DNA of 17,859 nt from Candidatus Thorarchaeota archaeon (GCA_011364985.1 RDOC01000015.1:1-17859); one strand, 5' to 3'; counted from the first letter of the stretch, positions 1,233-17,464 are shown. Notes: generated by a model not told the origin, from the sequence alone. Numbers and translations are program-made.

Positions 1233-3392
1233 ATGTCAGCCATACTCTTCATGGGAACCGCAATATTGTCTGGACTTCTGGCAATTTTCGTCGCTCTCTA
1301 CACCTATCAGCGGATTGTCAGGGCTGATGAGGGCGATGAACGAATGAGAGAAGTGAGTGGCCTTATTGAAAAAGGGGCTTATTCGTTTCTCAAAGTACAG
1401 TATAGAATCCTTATGTTATTCACAATCATCGTTGGAGCATTCATTGCCGTCTTATTCGGGCAGTTCGGAATACCAATCGCAATCTCCTACTTCTTGGGGT
1501 CTTTAGCTAGCATGGCTGCTGGATATATAGGGGTCATAGTTGCAACAAAGGCAAATCGACGTACGGCAGCGGCTGCGATTACGGGCGGGTTAAATCCTGC
1601 GTTTAAGGTGGCCTTTCGAGCTGGATCTGTTATGGGGCTAATGATAGCCGGAATTGCTTTGGTAGGTCTCGGTTCGCTCTACTGGCTATGGAATTTCGTC
1701 CTACCTGACTCTCTATTCACGGCGACTCCAAAAGAGGCAGAGCTCTGGGAGATCATAACAGGGTTCTCATTCGGCGCAAGTACTGTTGCATTGTTTGCTA
1801 AGGCAGGTGGTGGGATATATACCAAGACGGCGGACCTCTCTGCTGACTTGGTGGGTAAGATTGAACACCACATCCCTGAGGACGATCCCCGTAATCCCGC
1901 TGCTGTTGCCGACGCTGTCGGCGACAATGTGGGGGATGTTGCCGGAACGGGGGCCGATATCTATGATAGCAATGTGGCTGCAATTCTTGCCGCAGCAATT
2001 CTAGGCGCAGGAATTGACATTCATTTCACTCCCGTGCTCCCCCTTGGATTATTGCCCCTCATGATTGCAGCTATCGGGACAATATCCTCCGTTCTGGGAG
2101 TGTTCCTCGTTAGACCAAAGGAAGATCAAGACCCTGGCCCGGCACTAAATCGAGGGACTTATTTTACAACGCTGCTTTTTGTTGTGTTTACCGTGGTAGT
2201 TGTAATAGTCCTGAACCTCTCTATCATCATTGCAGTATCAGCAATTGTTGGCCTCATAGCAGGAGTTTTCATTGCATTTACTAGTGATGTATTTACTAGC
2301 GATCGTGGCTTGTCGACCTTCAAGCCTGTGCCCCGAATGGTCGAGTCAGCCGAAAAAAGCGCAGCAAATCTGATCCTCTCTGGCTACTCATATGGGCTTC
2401 TTAGTGTTATCCCATCGGTGCTGGGTATAGCTACTGCCATGGTTGTTTCCTTCATTCTGGGGTCCAACCTTGGATATGGAGAGTGGGAAGGTGGTATCTA
2501 TTGCGTCGCAATTGCCGCAGTAGGTCTTCTATCTACTAATGGAATGATAATGAGTTCCGATGCTTACGGTCCAATTGTCGATAATGCCAGAGGTGTTATC
2601 GAACAGGCTCAAGCCCCCAAGGAAGCAATCGTAGCTTGTGACAAATTGGATGCAAGCGGGAACACTGCCAAGGCGATCACCAAGGGATTTGCAATAGGTG
2701 CTTCTGCTATCTCTGTTCTTGCTTTGTTTGCTGCATTCATAGAGTCGACTGGCACACTCAATATACCCGGTGTCGTTGGACTAACTGATGTTAACTTAGC
2801 AAATCCTTACGTCCTTGCAGGTGCGTTGATTGGGGCTTTGGTTCCAGTTGCATTCTCTGCAATCCTCATCCTTGGAGTAGAACGAAATTCGGAGCGTATG
2901 ATTGAGGAGATTCGCAGGCAGTTTCGGGAATACCCGGGTATTCTTGAAGGCACAACAAAACCTGATTATGATAGGTGCATAGCTATAGCGACATCTGGTT
3001 CAATTCGCGAACTGATGCCAGGAACTCTGGTTGCAATTCTTGTCACTGTGACCACCGGGATCATTCTTGGCATCGAGGCGCTTGCAGGGTTTCTTGGTGG
3101 TGCTGTCATGGCAGGATTGATACTGGCCCTATTGATGGATAATGCCGGTGGGGCTTGGGATAATACCAAGAAGATAATCGAGTCGCCTGAATACATCACT
3201 TATGAGAAGGGAACTGAGGACTGGCATAGGGTTCATGACATTTCTGTTACTGGCGACATGGTTGGAGATCCCTTCAAGGACACTGCAGGGCCTGCAATCA
3301 ACACGCTACTAGTTGTTATCTCCCTAACCGCAATGCTTTTCCTCCCTGTGATAGCGAGACTTAACATCTGGCTCATTGGGCTATTCTGGTAG
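1233..3392 (+). CDS. hppA: Membrane-bound ion-translocating pyrophosphatase, predicted K+-independent H+ pump, divergent type
   Basis: Many TM helices; GGGIYTKTADLSADLVGKIE, IPEDDPRNP, DAVGDNVGD, DAYGPIVDNA, GNTAKAITKGF, GGAWDNTKK, GDMVGDPFKDTAGP. Confidence 0.96.
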   Translation: MSAILFMGTAILSGLLAIFVALYTYQRIVRADEGDERMREVSGLIEKGAYSFLKVQYRILMLFTIIVGAFIAVLFGQFGIPIAISYFLGSLASMAAGYIGVIVATKANRRTAAAAITGGLNPAFKVAFRAGSVMGLMIAGIALVGLGSLYWLWNFVLPDSLFTATPKEAELWEIITGFSFGASTVALFAKAGGGIYTKTADLSADLVGKIEHHIPEDDPRNPAAVADAVGDNVGDVAGTGADIYDSNVAAILAAAILGAGIDIHFTPVLPLGLLPLMIAAIGTISSVLGVFLVRPKEDQDPGPALNRGTYFTTLLFVVFTVVVVIVLNLSIIIAVSAIVGLIAGVFIAFTSDVFTSDRGLSTFKPVPRMVESAEKSAANLILSGYSYGLLSVIPSVLGIATAMVVSFILGSNLGYGEWEGGIYCVAIAAVGLLSTNGMIMSSDAYGPIVDNARGVIEQAQAPKEAIVACDKLDASGNTAKAITKGFAIGASAISVLALFAAFIESTGTLNIPGVVGLTDVNLANPYVLAGALIGALVPVAFSAILILGVERNSERMIEEIRRQFREYPGILEGTTKPDYDRCIAIATSGSIRELMPGTLVAILVTVTTGIILGIEALAGFLGGAVMAGLILALLMDNAGGAWDNTKKIIESPEYITYEKGTEDWHRVHDISVTGDMVGDPFKDTAGPAINTLLVVISLTAMLFLPVIARLNIWLIGLFW

Positions 3393-3406: not shown

Positions 3407-4297
3407 ATGCTTCGATTTGGAATGGTAGCACTGGAGTTTGCACCTGCAATTGATAGAATCGTCAGGAATGGCGTGCCAGACTTCTCACACTTTGTTCTTC
3501 CAGAGATTGTGAGAGAAGACCTAGAGATTGGCAACATCTCTGTGATTGAGGTGACTATGGACATGGTGCAAATCATTCCCGGTGTTCTAAGTCCCAAGAC
3601 TATCACTGAACTTATGGAACTGAAGGAAGAAATTGGTCACTCTTACACAGTCCATCTACCTCTCTGGTCAATAGAACCCTCTTCTTTCAACAGGTATATT
3701 CGAGAGGCGAGCACAGAGGCTATCGTTCATTCCATCAAGCTGGCTCAGGAATTGGAACCTGAAGCATTTGTGTTTCACTCAACTGGCGCACTTGCTGCTG
3801 AGTTCTCCCGATTACCATTACCATCAGAACTCCGGTTTGTCTTGGCTTCTTATATCAATGCATTTGCAGAGGAGAGCCTTGAAGACATTCTAGCAAAGAC
3901 TGAGATCGCCCCAAGAAAGCTGGCAGTTGAGAATATCGAGTTTCCTTTCGAAGTAACCCGTGATCTTGTTGATAGATTCGATACGGGAATCTGTCTTGAT
4001 ACAGGTCATGTCCTGAGCCGACAATCAGGGGATGAGTCTCTCATGGAGTTCTACAGAAACCACCGCGACCGGATTGTTGAGATTCATATCCACGATGGCA
4101 GCTATCCTGAAGGCGGAAGGCCTTTCCGCACAGAGCACACTGCATTGGGCAGGGGTGAGATGCCTATTCGCGAGTTCCTCCTTGAACTCATGAAGGACAA
4201 ATACGATGGACCACTCATTTTCGAACTTACGCCTGATGAAGTAGTAGAGTCTCTGGCCAAAATCAGACAGGTAGTTCCTGAGGCGCTTGGCAACTAG
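3407..4297 (+). CDS. AP endonuclease 2 / xylose-isomerase-like TIM-barrel metalloenzyme (possibly CbiR-like phosphodiesterase)
   Basis: Metal-ligand pattern VHLP, FH, VEN, LDTGH, EIHIHD, EH, FE; 14 bp after hppA stop with GGAGAGG RBS. Confidence 0.8.
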   Translation: MLRFGMVALEFAPAIDRIVRNGVPDFSHFVLPEIVREDLEIGNISVIEVTMDMVQIIPGVLSPKTITELMELKEEIGHSYTVHLPLWSIEPSSFNRYIREASTEAIVHSIKLAQELEPEAFVFHSTGALAAEFSRLPLPSELRFVLASYINAFAEESLEDILAKTEIAPRKLAVENIEFPFEVTRDLVDRFDTGICLDTGHVLSRQSGDESLMEFYRNHRDRIVEIHIHDGSYPEGGRPFRTEHTALGRGEMPIREFLLELMKDKYDGPLIFELTPDEVVESLAKIRQVVPEALGN

Positions 4298-5226
4298 GGA
4301 AGTAGTTTCTGCGCAATCCACTCTTTGAGCATTTCGCTAAAGGGAATCTTTTCTTTCCAAGTCGGGTCATTGTGAAATGTCTCATGGCGTAGCGTTATGC
4401 AGTCTTCCAACGAGCTTGGTTTGGAATCAGTACTATCTTCCGCATACAAATGAATGGGGTAGTTATAACTCGAGGGAAGCTCAACCATCTCTTCAATCTT
4501 AATGCTTGAGAGTATCACTCCTGTAAGAACAGCCTGATGAATGAAAATAGCATATCTCTCATCCCGTTTGTACAGCCCTTGTAGAGTGGGGTCCTGATAG
4601 ACCTTGAAGAAAGAGTCACACCATCTCGTGAACAATCTCCTCTCAGGTCGTATGGTCAAGGAACCTGCATTAAAGTATGGATTGATTGGTTTTTCTTCGA
4701 TGTGCGGCTTCATTGGGAATATCTGCTCCTTCCCTATATCAAAATGGTCGTATACAGTCTTCCAGAACACATCGAGAGGTTCTTCATAGTCAAGTCCGAG
4801 GAGCTTATGGTGCACTGGTCGATAACCCAAGATCACATCCTTTACAAGAAAGAAATCACTTGGTTCACGAAGAACAAGTGTGTTGGGTGCAAGCCACACC
4901 AAGAGGTCCATACTTCCAATGGCCTTAGACTCAGCAAGAGCAGCAGCCTCTACGTGGCCGGCAAACGGAAACTTAAGAGCATGCAACTCAATTTCGAAGG
5001 GGATTATATCCACATTCAACTTCTCAAGACGAGCCCTAGCTTTCAAAGACAATTCATGATCAAGTCTTGGTGCAAAATACCATATTGGTTGGGTCGAGAG
5101 TGCTCCTCCAAACTCTCGAATGCTTCCGGCCAGCAGCAATGAATTGGATTCTGCGGCCTTGCCCGGATATAATATAGAACTGAATACCAACGATTGATGT
5201 GTTGCTCTCTCTGGATGTGGAGTCAT
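4294..5226 (-). CDS. GT8-like (GT-A fold) glycosyltransferase homolog
   Basis: 310-aa ORF; LLAGSIREFGG, PYFNAG and YNYP motifs resemble GT8; 4-nt convergent overlap with the TIM-barrel gene. Confidence 0.55.
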   Translation of the reverse strand: MTPHPERATHQSLVFSSILYPGKAAESNSLLLAGSIREFGGALSTQPIWYFAPRLDHELSLKARARLEKLNVDIIPFEIELHALKFPFAGHVEAAALAESKAIGSMDLLVWLAPNTLVLREPSDFFLVKDVILGYRPVHHKLLGLDYEEPLDVFWKTVYDHFDIGKEQIFPMKPHIEEKPINPYFNAGSLTIRPERRLFTRWCDSFFKVYQDPTLQGLYKRDERYAIFIHQAVLTGVILSSIKIEEMVELPSSYNYPIHLYAEDSTDSKPSSLEDCITLRHETFHNDPTWKEKIPFSEMLKEWIAQKLLP

Positions 5227-6584: not shown

Positions 6585-6691
6585 ATTCTGCATAATCTGC
6601 TCTGAATCTCTTACACTCTATGCCTGATTTTCTACTGCTTTCTTGGTTAATTTTATCACGGACGGTTTGCATAGACACGCCGGTGCTTCTA

Positions 6692-7015
6692 ATGAATCTC
6701 AATCCATGTGGTCATCATTGTGACAAGTGTCCGAGCTACCGGAGCAGTAGTGAACCAACGTGCCCAGGTTGCATACCCACCAATGGAACTCCTTGGTGGG
6801 GGACTTGTAAGGTCTTCAAGTGCTCAACGGAGAAGGGCCTTTCTCATTGTGGCTTGTGCGACCAGTTCCCCTGCGATGGTCTTGTGAGCCACTATAATCC
6901 AGATAATCCTCAAGGCCAAAGGAATGCAGTTATTCGCACGGGGATTCTAGCTTACCGCACTAAGCACGGCGATGAAAAGGCTATCGAACTAGCGCAGAAG
7001 CTCATGCGTCTTTGA
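6692..7015 (+). CDS. Cys-rich DUF3795-like metal-binding protein (107 aa)
   Basis: CGxxCxxC...CxGC...CxxxxC...HCGxCxxFPC pattern; ATG 6692 preferred because a TATA-like TTTTAT lies near 6651-6656. Confidence 0.8.
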   Translation: MNLNPCGHHCDKCPSYRSSSEPTCPGCIPTNGTPWWGTCKVFKCSTEKGLSHCGLCDQFPCDGLVSHYNPDNPQGQRNAVIRTGILAYRTKHGDEKAIELAQKLMRL

Positions 7016-7057
7016 ATCTGCCCAGACGTCTCCCATCGGTTCGTATTGCGGTTTGAA

Positions 7058-7075
7058 TTGGAACACGTGTTCCAA
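7058..7075. promoter_or_regulatory. Perfect 18-bp palindrome TTGGAACACGTGTTCCAA (candidate operator)
   Basis: Self-complementary; about 22 nt upstream of TATA-like TTTAAT (7098-7103) of the nucleotidyltransferase gene. Confidence 0.55.
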
Positions 7076-7142
7076 ATACTCGCTTCGAACAGCATGCTTT
7101 AATTCCAGACACTCCATGCAAGCTATTGAGGCACGCGTTCTG

Positions 7143-7964
7143 ATGACTGGAAGTCGAATCAGCATTGTAAAGAGCATTGAAGAAATTGATGATCCTATGG
7201 CCCGCGAACGGCTCGAGAATCTTATCAAAGAACCCTATGTGAAGGGAATCATGCTCTGGGGGAGTAGAGCCACTGGTTTTGGTGCACCGAGTACAGACTG
7301 GGATGCTCTGGTTTATGTGACTGATGAGTACTATCAAGAATTGGATGTGAAGGACACCATTTGGCTCGAGTTTGACGAGTCTGTTGAGCCAAAACGACTT
7401 GTAATCGATTTTTCTCCGATATCCGATGCATGGTTCAAACAGCAGTTGGACTCCCCTCTTGACATCGACCACTCACCTTACTCCGAAGGAGTAGTCATCT
7501 ATGACCCCACTGGTGAACTAGAAGAGTGGCGCAAGAAACTGGCAAGATATCCAGAAGAGGAGCATCTTGAGCGACTAAAGAACAAGTATGGCCTCTTCAT
7601 GGGTGCTCTTGGCAATGCAATTGTTGACGAGCGAAGAGAATTCTCTCATGATGCCAAGCTAAACCTCTATCGTGCAATTATTGCAGCTGTGAACCTCTGG
7701 TTCTCGATAAAGAAGTCTTGGACACCACCTTTGAAGTGGTGGACGTCTCATGCCAAGAAGCTAGGAATTAGTGAAAAAACCTACAAGCTGTTCTGTGAAG
7801 CCCTAGATAGTCCAACAACGCAGTCCACTCGTGCCCTATTTGTTCATCTGAAAGACATGATTCTGGACGAAGGGTTCGAATTTCCAAACGATCCGATCAC
7901 TGCTTTCTTAGAAACTATTCATGTCAATGGTCGTCCTGGGCAAATTCGTCACAGCTATCTCTGA
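7143..7964 (+). CDS. Pol-beta superfamily nucleotidyltransferase with helical C-terminal domain (KNTase/DUF4037-like)
   Basis: hhWGSRATG...TDWDAL (GS + DxD) and a third acidic residue in VIDF; helical C-half; ATG 7143 preferred over TTG 7053. Confidence 0.8.
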   Translation: MTGSRISIVKSIEEIDDPMARERLENLIKEPYVKGIMLWGSRATGFGAPSTDWDALVYVTDEYYQELDVKDTIWLEFDESVEPKRLVIDFSPISDAWFKQQLDSPLDIDHSPYSEGVVIYDPTGELEEWRKKLARYPEEEHLERLKNKYGLFMGALGNAIVDERREFSHDAKLNLYRAIIAAVNLWFSIKKSWTPPLKWWTSHAKKLGISEKTYKLFCEALDSPTTQSTRALFVHLKDMILDEGFEFPNDPITAFLETIHVNGRPGQIRHSYL

Positions 7965-8038: not shown

Positions 8039-9970
8039 TCAAAGACGAAGCTTGAAAATATACTCCTCATCAGCCATGCTTAATTGGCTTTCAATGATCT
8101 TCCCTGTTTTGTGAAGGAATCTTATCATTGGCTGATTTCTTGGATGCACGTATGCTATGAATGCTTTGACACCCTTACTCTTTGCAATTCTCACTAGATG
8201 ATTCAGCATGAAGGTGCCTATTCCCATTCCCTGATACTCATCTTGAATTAGAAGAGCAAACTCGGCCTCATTTGTGCTTCTGTTCAGGAGATATCTTCCA
8301 GCACCAATCACCTGTTCTGTTTCTTTCTCATCATCAGGATGAATCACAGCCACAATTGATACATCCCGGTCAGCATCTACGTCATAGAAATCTTGCAGTG
8401 TCCGTCGTGGTAGACTCTTTAGAGGTGTAAGAAATCGGAAGTATATGCTCTCTTCAGATAAGTCGTAGAATAGATCCTTTATTCTATCCGCATCATCAGG
8501 TCTGGCCAATCGGAAATGGACTGTGACCTCTCCCTCTACCCCCTTGAAAGTTTCTTGATACTCGAACTCAGAGAGAAAGTAGGTTCCTTTCACCTGGAAC
8601 GGAACCTGATCTTCGAAGACATAGCGAAGTTTCTTTGCAGCCTCAAGAAGGCCGTTTCTAAAATCAGGGTGTGCAATGGCAATAAGTGAAAGAACTCGTT
8701 CTCTAATTGTCTTGCCATGTAAAGTTGCAAGGCCATATTCAGTAATAACAACATCAACGTCACCACGTGTTGTCACAACTCCTGCTCCCTCACTGAGCCG
8801 TGGCACAATCCTAGATACAGCGCCGTCCATCGCTGTGGATCGGATGCATATGATTGCTTTCCCACCAGGAGACCGTGCTGCGCCGCGAATGAAGTCTACT
8901 TGCCCGCCAATACCACTGTAGAACTTATGACCAATGGAGTCTGCACACACCTGTCCGGTTAGGTCCACTTCTAACGCAGAGTTGATTGCTATCATCTTCT
9001 TGTTCTGACTGATTACATAGGGATCATTGACATACGAGGTATCATGGAAGTGAAATAGTGGGTTGTTGTCCACATAATCATAGAGATTCTTGCTTCCCAT
9101 GGCAAAACTGGCAATAGCATGCCCTCGATGAATACTCTTCTTCATATTTGTCACGACGCCATCTTCGATAAGCGGAATCAAGCTGTCGCTGAACATCTCA
9201 GTATGAATTCCCAAGTCCCGCACACCAGTTTCAAGGAGATTGTTGCACACTGCTTGAGGCAGAGCTCCGATTCCCAGTTCCAAGGTCGATTCATTCTCGA
9301 TGAGTCTGGCAACATAGGAACCAATCAGATTCACAGTATCATCAATATCCGCTGCCTCGAATTCGCGAAGAGGCTCATTAAAAGGCACAATATAATCGAT
9401 TTCTTTTGCATTGATGAAGGAGTCACCATGAGTGACAGGCATTTGGTCATTTACCTGCGCAATCACAAGATCCGCACTCTCTGCTCCTGCTTTTGTTATA
9501 TCCACTGAGATTCCATAGGAGCAATACCCATGTTCATCTGGAGGGCTCACTTGGATAAGGGCGACATCGATTGGCATTCTCTTTGACCTGAACAATCGTG
9601 GAATATCAGAGAGCATTATTGGTGTATAATCTGCGCGCCCCTCCGAAACCGCTTCGCGAATATTCTCTGAAACGAAGAATGTGTTGTGCCTGAACTGCGA
9701 CTGAAACTTCGGGTCTGCGGAGGGCGTATCTCCAAGAGTTAGGAGATGCATAATTTCATTATCTGCCATTCGGTCAGAATGCTTTGCCAACTCCTGAACA
9801 AGATGATACGGGACGCCACACCCAGTACCAAGAAAGATCCGCGTACCTCGCTTAATCTTCTTAATTGCGGTATCTGCTTTCAACACCTTCTGTTTGTATT
9901 TCTCAATCCATTTGGCATCGGCCACTGCTGCTCTCTCGCGTTGCGACCTCTCATAGTTCCTAATAGACAT
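8039..9970 (-). CDS. Acetyl-CoA hydrolase/CoA-transferase (family I, 4-hydroxybutyrate CoA-transferase-like) fused to a C-terminal Pat-type GNAT acetyltransferase
   Basis: GRADYTP, QVSPPDEHGYCSYG, GIHTEMFSD (catalytic Glu), SGIGGQVDF, VVTTRGDVDVVITEYG; GNAT part about 8039-8530: LSEESIYFRF, IGAGRY, EAEFALLIQDEYQGMGIG, NQPMIRF; start likely ATG 9970. Confidence 0.92.
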   Translation of the reverse strand: MSIRNYERSQRERAAVADAKWIEKYKQKVLKADTAIKKIKRGTRIFLGTGCGVPYHLVQELAKHSDRMADNEIMHLLTLGDTPSADPKFQSQFRHNTFFVSENIREAVSEGRADYTPIMLSDIPRLFRSKRMPIDVALIQVSPPDEHGYCSYGISVDITKAGAESADLVIAQVNDQMPVTHGDSFINAKEIDYIVPFNEPLREFEAADIDDTVNLIGSYVARLIENESTLELGIGALPQAVCNNLLETGVRDLGIHTEMFSDSLIPLIEDGVVTNMKKSIHRGHAIASFAMGSKNLYDYVDNNPLFHFHDTSYVNDPYVISQNKKMIAINSALEVDLTGQVCADSIGHKFYSGIGGQVDFIRGAARSPGGKAIICIRSTAMDGAVSRIVPRLSEGAGVVTTRGDVDVVITEYGLATLHGKTIRERVLSLIAIAHPDFRNGLLEAAKKLRYVFEDQVPFQVKGTYFLSEFEYQETFKGVEGEVTVHFRLARPDDADRIKDLFYDLSEESIYFRFLTPLKSLPRRTLQDFYDVDADRDVSIVAVIHPDDEKETEQVIGAGRYLLNRSTNEAEFALLIQDEYQGMGIGTFMLNHLVRIAKSKGVKAFIAYVHPRNQPMIRFLHKTGKIIESQLSMADEEYIFKLRL

Positions 9971-10074
9971 TTCCAAGCGAACACAAGTGCTTCCAATGCA
10001 TGACGATAACCTTTTAGTGAGGTAATTCTCGCCACCTTCTTCAAGACTAGACAATCATTTAGGAGAATGACCTA

Positions 10075-11352
10075 ATGTCTGAAGAGAAAATCGGAAACCG
10101 CGGCCTTGTGATTATTGGGGCGATAATTGTTCAGCTCTGTTTGGGCACAATCTATGCGTGGACAATCTTCCAGACTGCCCTTACGGGTGGGACCTACAAT
10201 TGGCCGTCGCTAAATACACAGCTGCCATTTGCTGCAGGACTTGCGTCATTTGCCCTGTTCATGATTTTTGCCGGACGGTGGCAAGACAACGTTGGCCCGA
10301 GAAAAGTCGCTACTGTCGGCGGTATTCTTCTGGGACTCGGCTATATCCTCGCATCTCTCATTGACTTTCTGGCGCTTGATGCAACGATGGGCACAATCTA
10401 CCTCATTGTCACTTACGGTATAGTCGGTGGTGCTGGTATTGGATTTGCATATGTATGTCCAATTGCAGCATTAGTCAAGTGGTTCCCCGACAAGAAGGGT
10501 GCAATAACTGGGATTGCAGTTGCCGGCTTCGGTGGTGGAGCACTCATCTTTCTCTATATTGAAGAATTCCTCATCAATACGCTCTCTGGCGGCTTTGTTG
10601 GTATGCCATTTCTGTATCTCGGAATTATCTATCTTGTTGGTGTTGTTCTGGGTTCCCAGATCCTAGTCAATCCACCAGAAGGATGGTTGCCTGAAGGATT
10701 CACACCCCCCGCAACAACTGCCGATGCCTCAGGTGAAGGAGCGATGCCCAGTGAGATGATCCGCACAAGCTCTTTCTGGCTTCTTTGGCTTATGTTTGTC
10801 TTCGCAGCGACTGCTGGTCTAATGACTCTTGGCAACGTGAAGAGTGCTGCAGGCTTTGTGGATCCACTAGTTCTTGATCCGTTGCTGCAGCTGGGTGCGC
10901 TCATAGGTGGCATTATGTCCATCTTCAATGCTATTGGCAGAATCGTCTGGGGTGCAGTTTCTGACAAGCATGGAAGAGCTAATACGATGGCCTTGATGTT
11001 CATTATTCTGGCAGCGGCAATGTTCGGTCTTGCATGGGTTTCTTCCTCAACGCCAACAGAAGGCCTATGGATCACAATCACGGTCTTTGCATCATTAGTG
11101 GGCTTTTGTTTCGGAGGTAATTTCGCACTATTCCCATCCGCTACGGCTGACTTCTGGGGGTCCAAGAATGTTGGAAAGAACTATGGTGTGATGTTTACTG
11201 CATACGGTATTGCAGGAATTACTGGCGCCCTTGTTGCTGGGCCTATCGTTGATGCGACTGGTTCCTACTTCATGGCGTTCGTTGTTACTGGAGTACTTGC
11301 ACTTGTCGCAGTAATTCTCATCCTTGTGCTCAGAAGAATGAAAACACAATAA
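10075..11352 (+). CDS. MFS transporter, OFA/monocarboxylate family
   Basis: About 12 TM; GRWQDNVGPR, GFAYVCPIAALVKWFPDKKG, FNAIGRIVWGAVSDKHGR, GKNYG; RBS AGGAGA at 10061. Confidence 0.92.
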   Translation: MSEEKIGNRGLVIIGAIIVQLCLGTIYAWTIFQTALTGGTYNWPSLNTQLPFAAGLASFALFMIFAGRWQDNVGPRKVATVGGILLGLGYILASLIDFLALDATMGTIYLIVTYGIVGGAGIGFAYVCPIAALVKWFPDKKGAITGIAVAGFGGGALIFLYIEEFLINTLSGGFVGMPFLYLGIIYLVGVVLGSQILVNPPEGWLPEGFTPPATTADASGEGAMPSEMIRTSSFWLLWLMFVFAATAGLMTLGNVKSAAGFVDPLVLDPLLQLGALIGGIMSIFNAIGRIVWGAVSDKHGRANTMALMFIILAAAMFGLAWVSSSTPTEGLWITITVFASLVGFCFGGNFALFPSATADFWGSKNVGKNYGVMFTAYGIAGITGALVAGPIVDATGSYFMAFVVTGVLALVAVILILVLRRMKTQ

Positions 11353-11382
11353 TACACGACAAAGAGGTTAAGGATTATCTCC

Positions 11383-11409
11383 TTACTCCTCTTTTTCTTC
11401 TTTCTTTTT
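11383..11409 (+). terminator. Pyrimidine/oligo-T tract after MFS gene
   Basis: CTCCTCTTTTTCTTCTTTCTTTTT just downstream of stop 11352. Confidence 0.45.
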
Positions 11410-11445
11410 GCCACTTCTCAGCGAGATTTCTTTCAAAACTACTTA

Positions 11446-11555
11446 GTCGAATCAAAATTCGACGGTTTTCGAACAAAGTGCAAGAAAACGTGTCAATGGA
11501 CAATCCTTTTATTGGTGTTTCTGTGGCGTCGGCCAAAGCATCGATGCTAGGTGAC
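11446..11555 (+). promoter_or_regulatory. acs upstream region: palindromes, TATA-like box and RBS
   Basis: GTCGAAT-caaa-ATTCGAC (11446-11463), TGTC-aatg-GACA (11491-11502), CCTTTTATT (11505-11513), AGGTGA (11549-11554). Confidence 0.5.
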
Positions 11556-11562
11556 ATTTTAG

Positions 11563-13557
11563 ATGTCTGACGAAAAGAAAATCACTGTTACAAGCCAAGA
11601 GGGAAGACGATTCTCTCCCCCCCAGAGCTTTGTTGATAAGGCCTATGTAAAGAGCCACGGCGAGAGGATGAAGCTTTGGAAGGAGTCAATCGAGAATCCC
11701 GATGATTTCTGGCTTAAGTTAGCAAATTCTGACCTATTCTACTGGAAGAAACCACCCACAAAGGGTTTCAATTGGAAGAACCCTGAGAATGCTGAATTCA
11801 CTTTCTTCGAAGATGGTGTGACCAATCTGGCCTACAACTGTCTCGACAAGTGGGTTGAGCGCGGACGTGGTGATCAAATCGCCATCATCTGGCAAGGTGA
11901 TCCAGTTGAAGAGTCTAAGACCTACACATATTCGGAGCTCCTTAGTGAAGTCAACAAGGCTGCAAATGTACTGAAGAACCTTGGTCTGAAGAAGGATGAC
12001 ACAGTCACTATTTACCTGCCCATGATTCCTGAGCTAGCGATTCTCATGCTGGCTTGTGTCCGAATTGGCGTAATCCATAGTATTGTCTTTGGTGGGTTCA
12101 CTGCTGATTCGCTGATTGATAGGATTCAAGACTGTAAGAGCAAGGTACTCATCACAGCCGACGGATACTACCGCGGTGGAAAGGTGATTCCACAGAAGAA
12201 GAACGCCGACAGAGCCATCGAGGACACTCCAGTCATTGAGAAGGTCCTTGTTGTCGGGAGAATCGGCATCAATGACACGCCAATGCAGAACGGTCGCGAT
12301 TTCTGGTACCATGAGGAATACGCAAAAGTGAATGACAAATGCGATCCTGAATGGATAGGCGCTGAAGAGCCTCTCTTTATCCTCTACACATCAGGTTCCA
12401 CAGGAAAGCCAAAGGGTGTCCTTCACACCTTGGGAGGCTACATGGTCTACACAGCTCATAGCTTCTTGAAAATCTTCGACTGGCACCCGGGTGATGTCTA
12501 TTGGTGCACTGCTGACATTGGCTGGATTACTGGTCACTCCTACATTGTATATGGTCCTCTCGCTGCAGGAGCAACCTCAATGATGTACGAGGGTGTTCCT
12601 ACATGGCCAGAGCCTGACAGATTCTGGCATGAGGTCGAGAAATGGAAGGTAAACCAGTTCTACACCGCACCCACAGCAATTCGTGCCCTGATGAAGTTTG
12701 GTGACGACCCAGTGACCAAGCACGATTTGAGTTCTCTGAACCTTTTGGGGACTGTAGGAGAGCCCATCAATCCTGAGGCATGGATGTGGTATCACAGAGT
12801 TGTTGGCAAGGAGAAATGCCCCATTGTTGATACCTACTGGCAGACTGAGACCGGTGGTGTGATTTTCACCCCATTTCCCGGGTCCACAGCAACAATTCCA
12901 GGCTCATGCACCTTCCCATACTTTGGTGTCGATCCCCTGCTCGTTGCAGAAGATGGTACTCCATGCGGTCCAAACGAGGGAGGTTATCTCTGTATCAAGA
13001 AGCCCTGGCCTGGTCTAATGAGAACCGTCTATGGTGACCATCAGAGGTTCGTCAATACCTATTGGGTGCAGTACAAGGATCCTGACACTGGCAAGCCAAT
13101 GTACATGACTGGTGACGGCTCCCGATACAACGATGATGGTTACTACTTCGTCATGGGTCGAATCGATGATGTGCTCAAGGTATCCGGTCACCGGCTCGGA
13201 ACTGCCGAAATCGAGAGCGCTCTTGTCAAGCATTCCTCCGTGGCTGAAACCGCAGTTGTTGGCTTTCCCCACGATATTAAAGGTGAAGACATATACGCCT
13301 TCGTCACTCTGAAGGTTGGTGTCGAGAAGACAGATGAGCTGAGAGAGGAATTGCGAAAGTGGGTCCGGACTGAGGTGGGTCCAATCGCTACTCCTGCAAA
13401 GATTCAGTTTGCTGATGCGCTGCCCAAGACTCGTTCAGGCAAGATTATGCGCAGAATTCTGAAGAAGATTGCTGCAGGAACCATTGATGACATTGGCGAC
13501 ACCAGTACACTAGCCGACCCGGCAGTTGTTGAGGCCCTGATTAAGGAGCGACAATAG
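11563..13557 (+). CDS. acsA: Acetyl-CoA synthetase (AMP-forming)
   Basis: [82 protein letters not shown]. Confidence 0.98.
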   Translation: MSDEKKITVTSQEGRRFSPPQSFVDKAYVKSHGERMKLWKESIENPDDFWLKLANSDLFYWKKPPTKGFNWKNPENAEFTFFEDGVTNLAYNCLDKWVERGRGDQIAIIWQGDPVEESKTYTYSELLSEVNKAANVLKNLGLKKDDTVTIYLPMIPELAILMLACVRIGVIHSIVFGGFTADSLIDRIQDCKSKVLITADGYYRGGKVIPQKKNADRAIEDTPVIEKVLVVGRIGINDTPMQNGRDFWYHEEYAKVNDKCDPEWIGAEEPLFILYTSGSTGKPKGVLHTLGGYMVYTAHSFLKIFDWHPGDVYWCTADIGWITGHSYIVYGPLAAGATSMMYEGVPTWPEPDRFWHEVEKWKVNQFYTAPTAIRALMKFGDDPVTKHDLSSLNLLGTVGEPINPEAWMWYHRVVGKEKCPIVDTYWQTETGGVIFTPFPGSTATIPGSCTFPYFGVDPLLVAEDGTPCGPNEGGYLCIKKPWPGLMRTVYGDHQRFVNTYWVQYKDPDTGKPMYMTGDGSRYNDDGYYFVMGRIDDVLKVSGHRLGTAEIESALVKHSSVAETAVVGFPHDIKGEDIYAFVTLKVGVEKTDELREELRKWVRTEVGPIATPAKIQFADALPKTRSGKIMRRILKKIAAGTIDDIGDTSTLADPAVVEALIKERQ

Positions 13558-14077: not shown

Positions 14078-14998
14078 ATGACCGACATCATCGTTTCTGT
14101 TTCAGGAATCAAGAAGCGATTTGGCAAAATGCAGGCGCTAGATGGTGTTGAAATCTCAATCCCATCAGGAGTGTCTGGAATTATCGGTCCGAATGGGGCT
14201 GGCAAGACTACACTCCTACGAGTCTTGCTCGGCCTGATACGAGCAGATGAAGGTAGGGCTTCAGTACTTGGATTGGATTCTGAAATGCAGTCTCTTGAGA
14301 TTAGAAGAAGAATTGGAGTCCTACATGAAAGGCCAATTTATCCACGCTTTCTTACTCCACTAGAATATCTCAAGATGATATCAGACTTGTATTGGGAACA
14401 TAGAGAGCCAATTGAGTTGCTCAAACTAGTGGATTTAGATAAAGCATGCGATCGCAAAATAAAAGATCTCTCCGCAGGAATGCATCAACGACTTGGCATT
14501 GCACAGAGTCTAGTAGGATATCCCGAGATTGTGTTTTTAGATGAGCCAACATCCAATCTTGATGTGACGGGGCGAAATGCTGTTCTTCAATTAATAATGG
14601 ATTTGTATAACAATACTGGTACAAGCTTTGTCATTTCATCACACATACTCTCGGAGCTGGAGAGGATATGCCACAATTTGGTCTTCATTGATGGAGGCAA
14701 AGTCATAGAGAGTGGCAGACTTGTTGAAATATTCAAAAAGTACGCTTCAGACAGATGGAGAGTACTCACATCTGATTCTGAGGTTCTTTATAGGTTAATC
14801 ACAAGCCTTTCTGGATTCGAGAATATTGGGATTACAGGAGTCAACACCATTTCGTTCTCAAACAAGGGTGACATCAACACCATTCGCCATGAGATAGAAT
14901 CTATTGCGAAAGAACACGAGATAGATGTCTATGATGTTTCTAGGTCTACTAGCCTTGAAGAAGTCTTCAAAGAGGTATCAAGAAATGAAAGCGAATAA
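14078..14998 (+). CDS. ABC-2 type exporter ATP-binding subunit
   Basis: Walker A GPNGAGKTT, signature LSAGMHQR, Walker B IVFLDEPT, H-loop ISSH. Confidence 0.95.
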   Translation: MTDIIVSVSGIKKRFGKMQALDGVEISIPSGVSGIIGPNGAGKTTLLRVLLGLIRADEGRASVLGLDSEMQSLEIRRRIGVLHERPIYPRFLTPLEYLKMISDLYWEHREPIELLKLVDLDKACDRKIKDLSAGMHQRLGIAQSLVGYPEIVFLDEPTSNLDVTGRNAVLQLIMDLYNNTGTSFVISSHILSELERICHNLVFIDGGKVIESGRLVEIFKKYASDRWRVLTSDSEVLYRLITSLSGFENIGITGVNTISFSNKGDINTIRHEIESIAKEHEIDVYDVSRSTSLEEVFKEVSRNESE

Positions 14999-15806
14999 GA
15001 ATCTCATCGAAGGCATAGTAAAGCTGGGACGAATTGAACTTGCATTGTCGTACCGAATACCCCTAATCGAGTCAATGGCAGCCATAGTTGCTTATACTTC
15101 TTGCATAAGCGTATTCATGGTAATATTCCAAACTATTGGCTTGAATCTAGTTCTAAGTGACACATTATACAACGGACCAGAGAATGTGGGTGCATATCAA
15201 CAGATTATCAGTGAACGAGCAACTATGTCATATGCTCTAGCTCAAACCAGTTGCTGGACATTCTTTACAATCCTCGTTCCCCTCTTCTTTGCCTTCACTC
15301 TCGCAAGAGCGTTTGAAGATGGAACTCTTAGAACTCTTATGTCTTACCCAATAAGTCGTACAATGTTGTTGACTGTGAAGACGTTGGTATTTATTATAGT
15401 TATCTCGATACCTGTCATCCTAATCCCTCTGCTTCTAATTGCCACTTACCTGCCATCAGAGGCAATCGTAAACTATCTGGGTTTGTTCATCATCTCAACA
15501 TTATTGTCAGTTGCACAACTCTCAGTTACTTCAATCCTTCTGTCGGTTTTATCTAAGGATGCTGCAACAACTGCGGTGGTTGGAGTCCTATTATGGGTCG
15601 GGCTGTCATATCTATCCTCACTTCCGACCATCCCCATTCATTTCTTAATGCTATGTAGTCCTATTAAGATGCTATCAAACTATGCAGTAGGGCTGTATCC
15701 GGAAATGATAAATTGGGAGCTTCTATTTCTACTGCTGGGTTCGCTTGCTTTTGTAGCGGCACTCTTTATTATCGGAATAAGAGTTTTCAGGAGGGTGGAG
15801 ATTTGA
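14985..15806 (+). CDS. ABC-2 type exporter permease
   Basis: About 6 TM; FEDGTLRTLMSYPISR...K motif; start ATG 14985 after GAGGT, overlapping the ATPase end. Confidence 0.9.
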   Translation: MKANKNLIEGIVKLGRIELALSYRIPLIESMAAIVAYTSCISVFMVIFQTIGLNLVLSDTLYNGPENVGAYQQIISERATMSYALAQTSCWTFFTILVPLFFAFTLARAFEDGTLRTLMSYPISRTMLLTVKTLVFIIVISIPVILIPLLLIATYLPSEAIVNYLGLFIISTLLSVAQLSVTSILLSVLSKDAATTAVVGVLLWVGLSYLSSLPTIPIHFLMLCSPIKMLSNYAVGLYPEMINWELLFLLLGSLAFVAALFIIGIRVFRRVEI

Positions 15807-16306
15807 CCAGGTATCGTTTCAATCGGCTGAGCTGGCTGCTCATTTGTTTCGGAATTGCAGGAGTCTTGATTGGTATCACGATCCCAAGCTTTGGCATGGG
15901 AGACGCAGGGCAGTTTGACCCAGATGAACTAAGAGGAAGAATCTACTTCGTTGTAGGTGATGTGAATGTTGATATCACTGTTAACGAGGGCGGACCAATT
16001 TCATTCTATGTGCTCGATTGGAACAACTCAATGGAACTTGTCCGTACTCAATCCCTAAAAACCATAGACTCGATCTTTGTATTAGAAAACATAACACACT
16101 TTGAGGGAATCATTACTATTCCAGTGTCTGGGCTTTACTCCTTCATTTCACAAAATATGGATAACGAGAGTGTGGCTTTCCGCGTTGACATGAGTCGAGT
16201 TCTACCGCAGCGCCACATTTTCTACCCATCTGTGCTTGTAACCACGATAGGAATGATTTTGTTTCAGGCTGTGCGAACTCCAAGATCTCCGCTAAAGGAA
16301 CTATGA
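15803..16306 (+). CDS. Two-TM membrane protein with central beta-rich (GOLD-like) domain; ABC cassette accessory gene
   Basis: TTG start in TTGA overlap with permease stop, GGAGG RBS; N- and C-terminal TM helices flank VNVDITVNEGGPISFYVLD...IPVSGLYSFISQN. Confidence 0.75.
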   Translation: MTRYRFNRLSWLLICFGIAGVLIGITIPSFGMGDAGQFDPDELRGRIYFVVGDVNVDITVNEGGPISFYVLDWNNSMELVRTQSLKTIDSIFVLENITHFEGIITIPVSGLYSFISQNMDNESVAFRVDMSRVLPQRHIFYPSVLVTTIGMILFQAVRTPRSPLKEL

Positions 16307-16392: not shown

Positions 16393-17289
16393 TCCATTCG
16401 ATGGCTCCACATCGAAACTACTATGTTCCAAAATCGCCATATTTTCAAATCTCATATTAATCTTAAAGAAACCTTTAGCGAATCCGACCTACTGGGTCTT
16501 CTCGAGTATCTTAAGGACGCGGGCTATGCTGCTGGTCACCTTCCGGATGGCGAATCCGATTTGAGTAGTTATCACGTAAATCGTGGCGGAGCGTACATTC
16601 AGGTTAAGAAACTCTCCTTTCATGATTTGGGAGTGCAAGCCGCTATTGATGTGGCCAAGCGTGTTCTGGAACGCAGTAGTCATATCGTCTTTTCCTATCA
16701 TAAATCAATGACTGGAGAGCTTGTGTTGTACCGTGTGACGGTTGATGGGCAATCTACCTACGAAGAACCTATCCTTGTGACCTCCGATGGAGATCCTAAC
16801 CTATGATGGCATCTCGTCCCTTCAGCCATACTATATTGGCACTCAGTCAGGCATATCCTTTCTATCTCCGGTAGACCACATGGAAAAGTGGAAGAACGAA
16901 TGGTTTGAGAAGCAGTATCGACTGTGGAAGTCAAAGAAGAAAGATACAGAGCTTCAGGTACTGGAATCAGAAAATGAAGCCAAACGAGAGTCCAAGAGAA
17001 TCATGCTCAAGGAGCATTTGGAGAGAAGGCCTCGAGATGTCAGAGTAGAGCAAGTAAAAACAATCTGCCCGGTGGAATTCGAGAAGACTGAGAGTGAACA
17101 AGCATGGCTGGAGCGCCATGAGGTTGAAGAACTTGCAATGGCAGCCGCTATGTCGTGTCATGATAATCTGGGTCACAACGTCGAGGATGTTGCGAGGAAG
17201 AACCGGGGATATGATATTCTCTGCAAGTCAACAACAGGAGTTTCACGTGTTGAGGTGAAAGGTATCATTTGCGCATCCTTCAGAGCCAT
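16393..17289 (+). pseudogene. Frameshifted, truncated remnant ending in a DUF3883/NOV_C PD-(D/E)XK domain (probably the C-terminus of a helicase-nuclease)
   Basis: ORFs 16423-16806 and 16787-17464 join by one base near 16789 (PILVTSDG|EILTYDG); [10 protein letters not shown]...[16 protein letters not shown]...RVEVKG; domain cut shortly after EVKG. Confidence 0.7.
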
Positions 17290-17464
17290 AATCGCTACTC
17301 CTACGAAGATTCAGTTTGCTGATGCACTGCCCGAGACTCGTTCAGGCAAGATCATGCGCAGAATTCTGAAGAAGATTGCTGCAGGCACTGTCGATGACAT
17401 CGGCGACACAAGCATACTGGCTTACCCAGCCGTTGTTGAGGCTCTCGTCAAAGAACGCCTCTAA
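17290..17464 (+). pseudogene. acsA: Displaced 3' fragment of acs (57 codons), direct repeat copy 2
   Basis: [57 protein letters not shown], 50/57 aa identical to the acs C-terminus. Confidence 0.95.

Follow-up and report, generated by a model that had tools for sequence, protein, structure and literature searches.

A CoA-transferase-GNAT fusion beside acs in a Thorarchaeon, a candidate Pat-type writer of acetyl-CoA synthetase

In bacteria, the control of AMP-forming acetyl-CoA synthetase (Acs) through acetylation of a lysine is a paradigm of metabolic regulation. The Pat acetyltransferases that write this mark are classified by the domain that accompanies their GNAT domain: types I and II carry a domain like that of ADP-forming acyl-CoA synthetases (ACD), type III has a cAMP, ACT or NADP domain, and types IV and V have no regulatory domain. 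In Bacillus, a deacetylase of the AcuC class (HDAC type) reactivates Acs. Here we analyze a stretch of 17,859 bp, hereafter the window, that constitutes an entire contig (C6) of a Thorarchaeota (Asgard) assembly (1.70 Mb, 74% complete) and that encodes, in one copy for the whole assembly, a fusion of a coenzyme A (CoA)-transferase with a GNAT acetyltransferase. A sequence-only reading of this window had described a family I CoA-transferase with an intact catalytic Glu, fused to a GNAT of the Pat type and divergent from a monocarboxylate-type transporter of the MFS class and from acs (frames 8039-10054 on the minus strand, 10075-11352 and 11563-13557 on the plus strand), had noted that Acs keeps the lysine of the PKTRSGK motif, and had interpreted the whole as a device for shutting off Acs.

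The frames, the domain assignments, the type of the transporter and the Acs motif were all confirmed by the searches reported below, and the comparative and predictive evidence supports the interpretation as well. We give a probability of about 0.6 to the following reading: the fusion would be a lysine acetyltransferase of the Pat type, equipped with a CoA-transferase as accessory domain, that shuts off the neighbouring Acs at K627, and an HDAC-type deacetylase would reverse the modification.

Domain identities and comparison with described Pat enzymes

Pfam searches detected the N and C domains of AcetylCoA_hydro over residues 63-473 of the fusion (PF02550, E 1e-34; PF13336, E 9e-68), and its N-terminal part has the two-lobed fold that these domains define. 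Residue numbers refer throughout to P0001, the 671-aa frame read from TTG 10054, unless the 628-aa protein is named. The same part matched 4-hydroxybutyrate CoA-transferases in the PDB (9vag, 3e-134; 3eh7, 3e-127; 3gk7, 2e-106), and alignment with these solved enzymes placed the catalytic Glu at E286, within an HTEMF motif at residues 284-288; the CoA-thioester motif GXGGXXD is represented by GIGGQVDF at residues 381-388. An alignment of 82 full-length fusions, drawn from Asgard archaea, Thermoplasmata and some ten bacterial phyla, showed the Glu, the His and the GGQxDF segment of the transferase to be invariant. The fold, the HTEM Glu and GGQxDF are thus common to the fusion, to the 4-hydroxybutyrate CoA-transferase AbfT and to butyryl-CoA:acetate CoA-transferase, with about 50% identity to the solved enzymes. 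In contrast, the known enzymes are stand-alone proteins of 430-450 aa, whereas the domain is here fused to a GNAT. Because the score against TIGR03948, the butyryl-CoA:acetate CoA-transferase equivalog, is far under its cut-off (305 versus 674.8 bits), the substrate pair cannot be assigned.

The C-terminal part matched Acetyltransf_1 at residues 514-651 (E 7e-11) and also Acetyltransf_3, and NF058543, the family of the mycobacterial Pat, gave 62 bits across it. A PDB search with the C-terminal 180 residues returned Pat-type proteins as its nine best matches, the two weaker remaining ones being other acetyltransferases. These relatives comprised the GNAT of S. lividans PatA (SlPatA; 4nxy/4u5y, 2e-17), full-length Pat/PatZ (9isq/9it0, 1e-14), Sulfolobus Pat (3f8k) and the mycobacterial cAMP-Pat (4oll/4orf/4onu/4ava), and the claim that the GNAT belongs with Pat-type enzymes rather than outside them was therefore upheld. 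Residue E598 aligns with SlPatA E123 and is equivalent to PatZ E809, which are placed beside the acetyl group and the acceptor lysine (PMC12184503). This position is Glu in 80 of the 82 aligned fusions and Asp in the other two; in the acetyl-CoA pyrophosphate-binding loop (QxxGxG) the Gln is found in 80/82, and G611 and G613 in 82/82. A search of the protein library with the GNAT only gave 9,849 relatives at E <= 0.001, and its nearest neighbours were stand-alone GNATs, CoA-transferase fusions of 610-660 aa and type I/II Pat proteins of 820-890 aa. The two closest stand-alone GNATs (45-48% identity) were considered as split forms of the fusion and rejected, one of them being located on a 1.7-kb contig immediately behind another fusion, the other in an unrelated context. 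An AlphaFold2 model of the full-length fusion, built from a 44-row alignment, reached a pLDDT of 87 and a pTM of 0.80, and from their motifs both domains look catalytic in this Thorarchaeon.

Compared with type I/II Pat (S. enterica Pat, E. coli PatZ/YfiQ, S. lividans PatA), the fusion has a homologous GNAT with the same catalytic Glu and P-loop (E 2e-17 to 1e-14). Its proposed target is likewise the PX4GK lysine of Acs, and its predicted docking, described below, is like the solved SlPatA-Acs mode. However, the NDP-forming acyl-CoA-synthetase-like domain of those enzymes is replaced: the N-terminal 430 residues are a family I CoA-transferase, ACD domains are absent, and the host is archaeal. 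PatZ has lost the catalytic His of its ACD domain (H254 replaced by L245; PMC12184503), whereas the transferase residues are kept here. Judged by its domains, the fusion is a Pat by its GNAT and stands outside the type I/II architecture. It shares with type III Pat (mycobacterial cAMP-Pat and the ACT and NADP forms) a domain order in which an N-terminal ligand-binding part, a few hundred residues long, precedes a C-terminal Pat GNAT, a likeness reflected in the NF058543 and 4oll/4ava matches; in contrast to type III, the putative sensor has the fold of an enzyme, with an active site of its own and CoA-thioester ligands, and is not a cyclic nucleotide, ACT or NADP module.

The acsA/acuABC system of Bacillus subtilis resembles the locus in another respect, since its writer gene is also divergent from acs and its eraser is a Zn-dependent HDAC-family protein of the AcuC type, not only a sirtuin; bacterial relatives of the fusion also cluster writer, eraser and acs. 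The two systems differ in that AcuA is a single-domain GNAT of another subfamily, whereas in the window the eraser is not adjacent and the transporter is part of the unit. A CoA-transferase accessory domain was absent from the published type I-V Pat schemes that we examined, and targeted literature searches for a CoA-transferase paired with a GNAT or Pat domain gave no paper and no experimental study. Likewise, a paper on archaeal fusion proteins makes no mention of a CoA-transferase-GNAT fusion, and our searches found no report of an Acs writer in Asgard archaea. Database records call the protein no more than 'GNAT family N-acetyltransferase' or 'acyl-CoA hydrolase/RimJ/RimL'. The fusion family would add a new regulatory-domain class of Acs writer.

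Linkage to acs and predicted docking at K627

The acs product passed two equivalog models of acetyl-CoA synthetase (NF001208, 977 bits versus a cut-off of 657; TIGR02188, 944.7 versus 725). It is the one canonical AMP-forming Acs of the assembly, and the GNAT of the fusion is the only Pat-like GNAT found there. K627, the proposed acetylation site, closes the PKTRSGK motif at Acs residues 621-627 and corresponds to K609 of Salmonella Acs; the segment that contains this motif was invariant across 26 fusion-linked Acs proteins. Analysis of two complete Thorarchaeota chromosomes showed the same pattern of a single Pat-like GNAT and a single canonical Acs, and in both the sole close Acs (74-80%) adjoins the fusion. 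The transporter encoded between the two genes scored 383.6 bits against the SfMCT L-lactate transporter equivalog, whose cut-off is 320.

A scan of one genome per species gave at least 560 loci that code for the full fusion, distributed among Asgard archaea, Thermoplasmata and many anaerobic bacterial phyla. Gene neighbours were surveyed at 80 of these loci (30 Asgard, 41 bacterial and 9 from Thermoplasmata), and linkage was scored within 10 kb, a distance at which we estimate the chance of a neighbour at about 1% for one to two acs genes per genome. Among the 30 Asgard loci, 20 had acs and 22 had the MFS gene, in the same layout as the window; contig ends cut all but three of the loci lacking acs, the three (L020, L024 and L026) having no acs in the available upstream sequence. 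In bacteria, acs was found within 10 kb of the fusion at 16 of 41 loci and a co-linked MFS gene at 13. The acs-linked bacterial fusions came from Planctomycetota, Verrucomicrobiota, Spirochaetota and Chloroflexota, and their genes are arranged in at least four orders, among them ACD-fusion-HDAC-acs-MFS and acs-MFS-fusion.

We also compared the presence of the two genes in an even sample of 121 Asgard genomes, for which no P value is given because kin are not independent. Acs was present in 31 of the 37 genomes with the fusion (not found in 6) and in 23 of the 84 in which the fusion was not found (not found in 61). Where a genome had both genes, they were no more than 5 kb apart in 20 of 31 cases. 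Three Asgard families contributed to this adjacency, each with its own layout: f1 (11/14, divergent, with MFS), f9 (6/8, divergent) and f16 (3/3, convergent). The variation in layout between the three families argues for repeated retention of the fusion-acs link. The synteny pointed out in the sequence-only reading is thus conserved beyond the window, in three Asgard families and in four bacterial phyla.

The structural compatibility of the two proteins was analyzed by complex prediction with the GNAT (residues 495-671) and the C-terminal domain of Acs (residues 530-664), each with its own alignment, in three runs and with three controls. The pair obtained an ipSAE of 0.77, compared with 0.04 for the best control. 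Of 80 solved complexes, 58 attained this score, as did 2 of 110 mismatched pairs, counts that are rough since own alignments were used for the present pair. The runs agreed in at least 92% of contacts, and the pLDDT of the partners was at least 85. The lowest-error contacts joined Acs K627 and residues 623-628 to GNAT residues 540-547, 598-600 (including E598) and 635; in the predicted complex E598 touches Acs residues 623 and 625, and the adjacent A600 touches K627. A complex of the SlPatA GNAT with Salmonella Acs has been solved (4U5Y; PMC12184503), and AcuA-AcsA complexes exist. What the prediction indicates is compatibility of the fusion with the known Pat-Acs mode, which is a lesser claim than that the fusion and Acs bind.

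A model of Acs shut-off and its alternatives

In the model that we favour, the MFS transporter would import acetate or another short monocarboxylate, and Acs would turn acetate into acetyl-CoA at the cost of converting ATP into AMP and pyrophosphate. A high acyl-CoA/CoA state, read by the CoA-transferase domain, would then cause the GNAT to acetylate Acs K627 with acetyl-CoA. Acetylation would block the adenylation half-reaction, as it does in Salmonella, Bacillus and mycobacteria, and a Zn-dependent deacetylase of the HDAC/AcuC type, encoded elsewhere in the genome, would remove the mark. The transferase domain would probably also move CoA between acetyl-CoA and a C2-C4 acid, and an acyl-CoA route free of ATP cost would thereby be physically tied to the device that shuts off the ATP-costly one. 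The domain identities, the catalytic motifs, the Acs motif and the conserved linkage are observed and the docking mode is predicted; target, signal and direction of control are what we infer. Since the fusion and Acs are soluble, ordinary proteins, the proposal is directly testable in vitro.

Evidence on the contribution of the CoA-transferase domain came from Asgard family f9. In six f9 fusions that are head-to-head with acs (L092-L096 and L100), HTEM is replaced by HSHY, and GGQxDF by GETIDF or GDTVDF. The same six keep the GNAT Glu (in AEYS or GEYS), together with an RGKGxG loop in five and RGKRIG in the sixth. Four other f9 fusions, with no acs within the fetched flanks, have kept the transferase Glu (HSEV) and GGQVDF, and the motifs are intact in the f16 fusions, which are convergent with acs. 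The f9 pattern looks like subfunctionalisation after duplication. Because the acs-linked role survives the loss of the transferase motifs in f9, it would rest on the GNAT plus a module with the shape of a CoA-transferase. A parallel is the inactive ACD domain of PatZ, an acetyl-CoA-binding domain that gates the GNAT and gives the Acs pocket its shape (PMC12184503). The transferase domain of the window is most likely a regulatory, ligand-reading module of this Pat style and, its motifs being intact, it probably also still transfers CoA; the feeding of a special acyl-CoA to the GNAT is less likely as a general mechanism. Of the two roles, sensor or donor generator, between which the sequence-only reading had left the choice, the first is favoured, a sensor or scaffold being sufficient where the transferase motifs are dead and the GNAT is intact, and the second does not hold as a general basis of the acs link. 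The two Asgard forms make up a rare series, from a domain that by its motifs is still catalytic (here) to a degenerate sensor domain (f9), and the dead ACD domain of Pat presumably came about along a path of this kind.

With respect to the eraser, for which the sequence-only reading had proposed looking for a sirtuin or an HDAC partner, the candidates are of the HDAC type. Of the 41 bacterial loci, 15 encoded a Hist_deacetyl protein of about 390 aa, in most cases within the cluster that contains the fusion and at several loci directly after it; the best solved relatives of this linked HDAC, which is of the AcuC class, are HDAC6, HDAC8 and HDLP. The Thorarchaeon of the window has five HDAC-family (Hist_deacetyl) genes elsewhere in its genome. 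One of these, at the very start of contig C4, is a 66% orthologue of an HDAC located about 4.6 kb beyond acs in two sister genomes, and another Thorarchaeon (L111) has an HDAC rather than acs beside its fusion.

Several results weigh against the shut-off of Acs as we propose it. No deacetylase is encoded within the window, and a sirtuin (SIR2) was not found in the 74%-complete assembly. In a tree of 149 GNAT domains from fusions, ACD-type Pat and stand-alone proteins, 14 of 146 branches were supported and the architectures were interleaved, and neither a single origin nor a specific Pat subclade can be named from it. An acs gene within 10 kb was absent from 25 of the 41 bacterial loci and from all 9 of Thermoplasmata, adjacency of fusion and acs was 0/6 in Asgard families f22, f24 and f18, and the synteny seen elsewhere could merely mirror a shared acetate metabolism. 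The score of the predicted complex may reflect memory or likeness, since 4U5Y is a solved structure. Finally, the commonest bacterial neighbour of the fusion, ahead of Acs, is an ACD of about 700 aa that lies directly before it at 36 of the 41 loci, often translationally coupled. This ACD scored above the TIGR02717 cut-off and is like the ADP-forming 4-hydroxybutyrate-CoA ligase 8wzu (2e-161), and it keeps the SHTG His loop in 34 of 38 copies and is therefore apparently active, so the core partnership of the fusion family may be metabolic. In the genome of the window, ACD genes are located elsewhere, on contigs C16 and C15.

The frequency of the bacterial ACD neighbour counts in favour of the first alternative, in which the fusion serves mainly in metabolism, as an enzyme at the acetate/acyl-CoA node, its GNAT acts on an acceptor other than Acs, and the nearness of acs and the transporter reflects the acetate metabolism that the genes share. 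Candidate acceptors would be a small amine, the ADP-forming acetyl-CoA synthetase, a chromatin protein such as Alba or a broad set of proteins. The Sulfolobus Pat homologue 3f8k, whose reported substrate is Alba, is among the relatives of the GNAT. PatZ itself is described as acetylating many substrates (PMC12184503). The invariance of the transferase motifs in the 82 aligned fusions and the loci of Thermoplasmata and of many bacteria that lack acs also fit a metabolic role. However, metabolism alone hardly explains why dead-transferase fusions adjacent to acs keep their GNAT. HDAC and acs recur together in the same clusters, and K627 lies in the active site of the predicted complex, for which the controls were clean. 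We regard this alternative as unlikely. Under the shut-off model, the bacterial clusters, which unite an ATP-yielding acetate-forming enzyme, an ATP-costly acetate-consuming enzyme, a carrier, a writer and an eraser, suggest that writer and eraser decide between ATP-yielding acetate formation and ATP-costly activation, and that in bacteria this pair would prevent a futile ACD/Acs cycle.

A second alternative assigns to the transferase the production of a donor: from an imported acid and acetyl-CoA it would make a non-acetyl acyl-CoA (propionyl-, butyryl-, lactyl- or 4-hydroxybutyryl-CoA) for use by the GNAT. The acyl group placed on Acs K627 or on other lysines would then encode which acid is being consumed, an extension that we hold to be just as doubtful as the donor route itself. 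Both active sites are intact in this lineage, the transporter is a lactate-carrier equivalog and the closest transferases act on C4 acids, all of which would suit such a route; CoA-transferase and GNAT also figure among the terms that a review covers in connection with lactylation. On the other hand, the acs-linked f9 fusions lack the catalytic residues of the transferase, and donor production is hence not the general basis of the acs link; in the acyl-specific reading, the dead-transferase lineages would be a later simplification to plain acetyl-CoA sensing. We judge this alternative improbable. Lastly, it is very improbable that the GNAT acetylates its own CoA-transferase domain, in cis or within a dimer, or is a structural appendage that transfers nothing to other proteins, for although both domains belong to one chain and are modelled with confidence at full length, the GNAT Glu and P-loop are kept even where the transferase is dead, which indicates a role beyond transferase control, and the repeated presence of HDAC and acs genes nearby suggests that the target is a separate protein.

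Gene start, promoter region and neighbouring genes

The features of the locus are collected in Table 1. Homologues of the fusion with 78-93% identity are labelled as coming from Thorarchaeota or other Asgard metagenome-assembled genomes. Their modal length is 628 aa, and alignments with them begin at residue 43-44 of the 671-aa frame, of which residue 44 is the GTG at 9925; the true start is thus probably this GTG, and TTG 10054 was dropped. An ATG at 9970 was dropped as well, because the codon lies inside the BRE/TATA-like box that is conserved in the intergenic regions of 13 Thorarchaeota. The gap between the fusion and the MFS gene would be a divergent promoter region in which both conserved boxes, by their conservation, have a putative promoter role.

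Table 1. Positions of the fusion, its functional sites, the transporter and acs in the window
Feature	Position	Strand	Details
Fusion gene, CoA-transferase + Pat-type GNAT	8039..9925	-	628 aa from the probable start GTG 9925; homologue lengths, start choice
Pat-type GNAT domain	8042..8524	-	P0001 residues ~511-671; Pfam, NCBIfam and PDB matches
Acetyl-CoA pyrophosphate-binding loop QGMGIG	8216..8233	-	residues 608-613; 82-fusion alignment
GNAT catalytic Glu codon, E598	8261..8263	-	aligned with SlPatA E123
Family I CoA-transferase domain, 4-hydroxybutyrate/butyryl-CoA:acetate type	8624..9919	-	P0001 residues ~46-477; Pfam and PDB matches
CoA-transferase catalytic Glu codon, E286	9197..9199	-	E243 of the 628-aa protein; in HTEM; aligned with solved 4-hydroxybutyrate CoA-transferases
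Divergent intergenic region, fusion/MFS	9926..10074	.	149 bp; alignment of 13 Thorarchaeota intergenic regions
BRE/TATA-like box, fusion side	9959-9974		consensus GAAAnGCCTATATG, conserved across 13 Thorarchaeota intergenic regions
Second conserved promoter-like box, MFS side	10010-10019		ACTAAAAGG on minus strand; 56-65 nt upstream of MFS start
MFS monocarboxylate transporter, OFA family, SfMCT L-lactate-transporter equivalog	10075..11352	+	425 aa; NCBIfam
AMP-forming acetyl-CoA synthetase (acs)	11563..13557	+	664 aa
Acs K627 codon, proposed acetylation site	13441..13443	+	last residue of PKTRSGK

Downstream of acs, an ABC ATPase/permease cassette (14078-16306) is followed by a copy of the last ~56 acs codons, which recur about 3.9 kb downstream of the gene at 17285-17464 on the plus strand with 89% protein identity, LPE replacing LPK and AYP replacing ADP. 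This arrangement looks like an insertion into the 3' end of acs by which the tail was carried along or rebuilt; regardless of the copy, K627 is retained in the intact acs. At the other end of the window, about 5 kb from the module, a membrane H+-pyrophosphatase is encoded at 1233-3392 on the plus strand and is syntenic with the module in a sister genome (L007). As Acs releases pyrophosphate, a functional tie between this enzyme and the module is conceivable.

Downstream of the fusion and on the opposite strand, a gene for a CbiR-like TIM-barrel protein (3407-4297, plus strand) reached 133 bits against the cobamide-remodelling phosphodiesterase equivalog, with a cut-off of 105, and the gene was found here and at 14 of 30 Asgard loci. 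Downstream TIM-barrel genes were considered as a partner shared between Thorarchaeota (14/30) and Thermoplasmata (8/9) and were rejected, the two belonging to unrelated families, CbiR-like and endonuclease IV, and reflecting lineage synteny. Between the CbiR-like gene and the region downstream of the fusion there is an open frame of 310 aa on the minus strand (4294-5226) with no Pfam match. The segment 5227-8038 of the window has no tandem paralogue of the fusion; genes for a DUF3795 protein (6620-7015) and for a DUF4037/Pol-beta nucleotidyltransferase (7053-7964) are found there instead. A second, tandem paralogue is present at about 13 of 30 Thorarchaeota loci (L003, L004-L007, L009, L010, L018, L021-L023 and L031), where it lies downstream of the first fusion, shows 70-76% identity to it and has both sets of catalytic motifs intact. 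A 402-aa Amidohydro_1 protein, which is absent from the window and resembles Xaa-Pro dipeptidase below the cut-off, is encoded directly after the fusion or fusions at nine Thorarchaeota loci (L003, L004-L006, L014, L019, L022, L023 and L030).

A search for a longer triple fusion of ACD, CoA-transferase and GNAT found none, a search that is weak evidence of absence, and also gave eukaryotic acetyl-CoA hydrolase fusions. In Poribacteria, a protein of 1316 aa (P0126) joins a CoA-transferase, an ADP-forming acetyl-CoA synthetase and a DRTGG/AAA_26 part like the N-terminal region of Pta, but has no GNAT. At no fewer than seven loci outside Thorarchaeota, including Chloroflexota, the fusion is followed by a DRTGG/AAA_26 gene that stands alone (L078:11893-13008 is such a gene), and further parts of the acetate node thus cluster with the fusion family.

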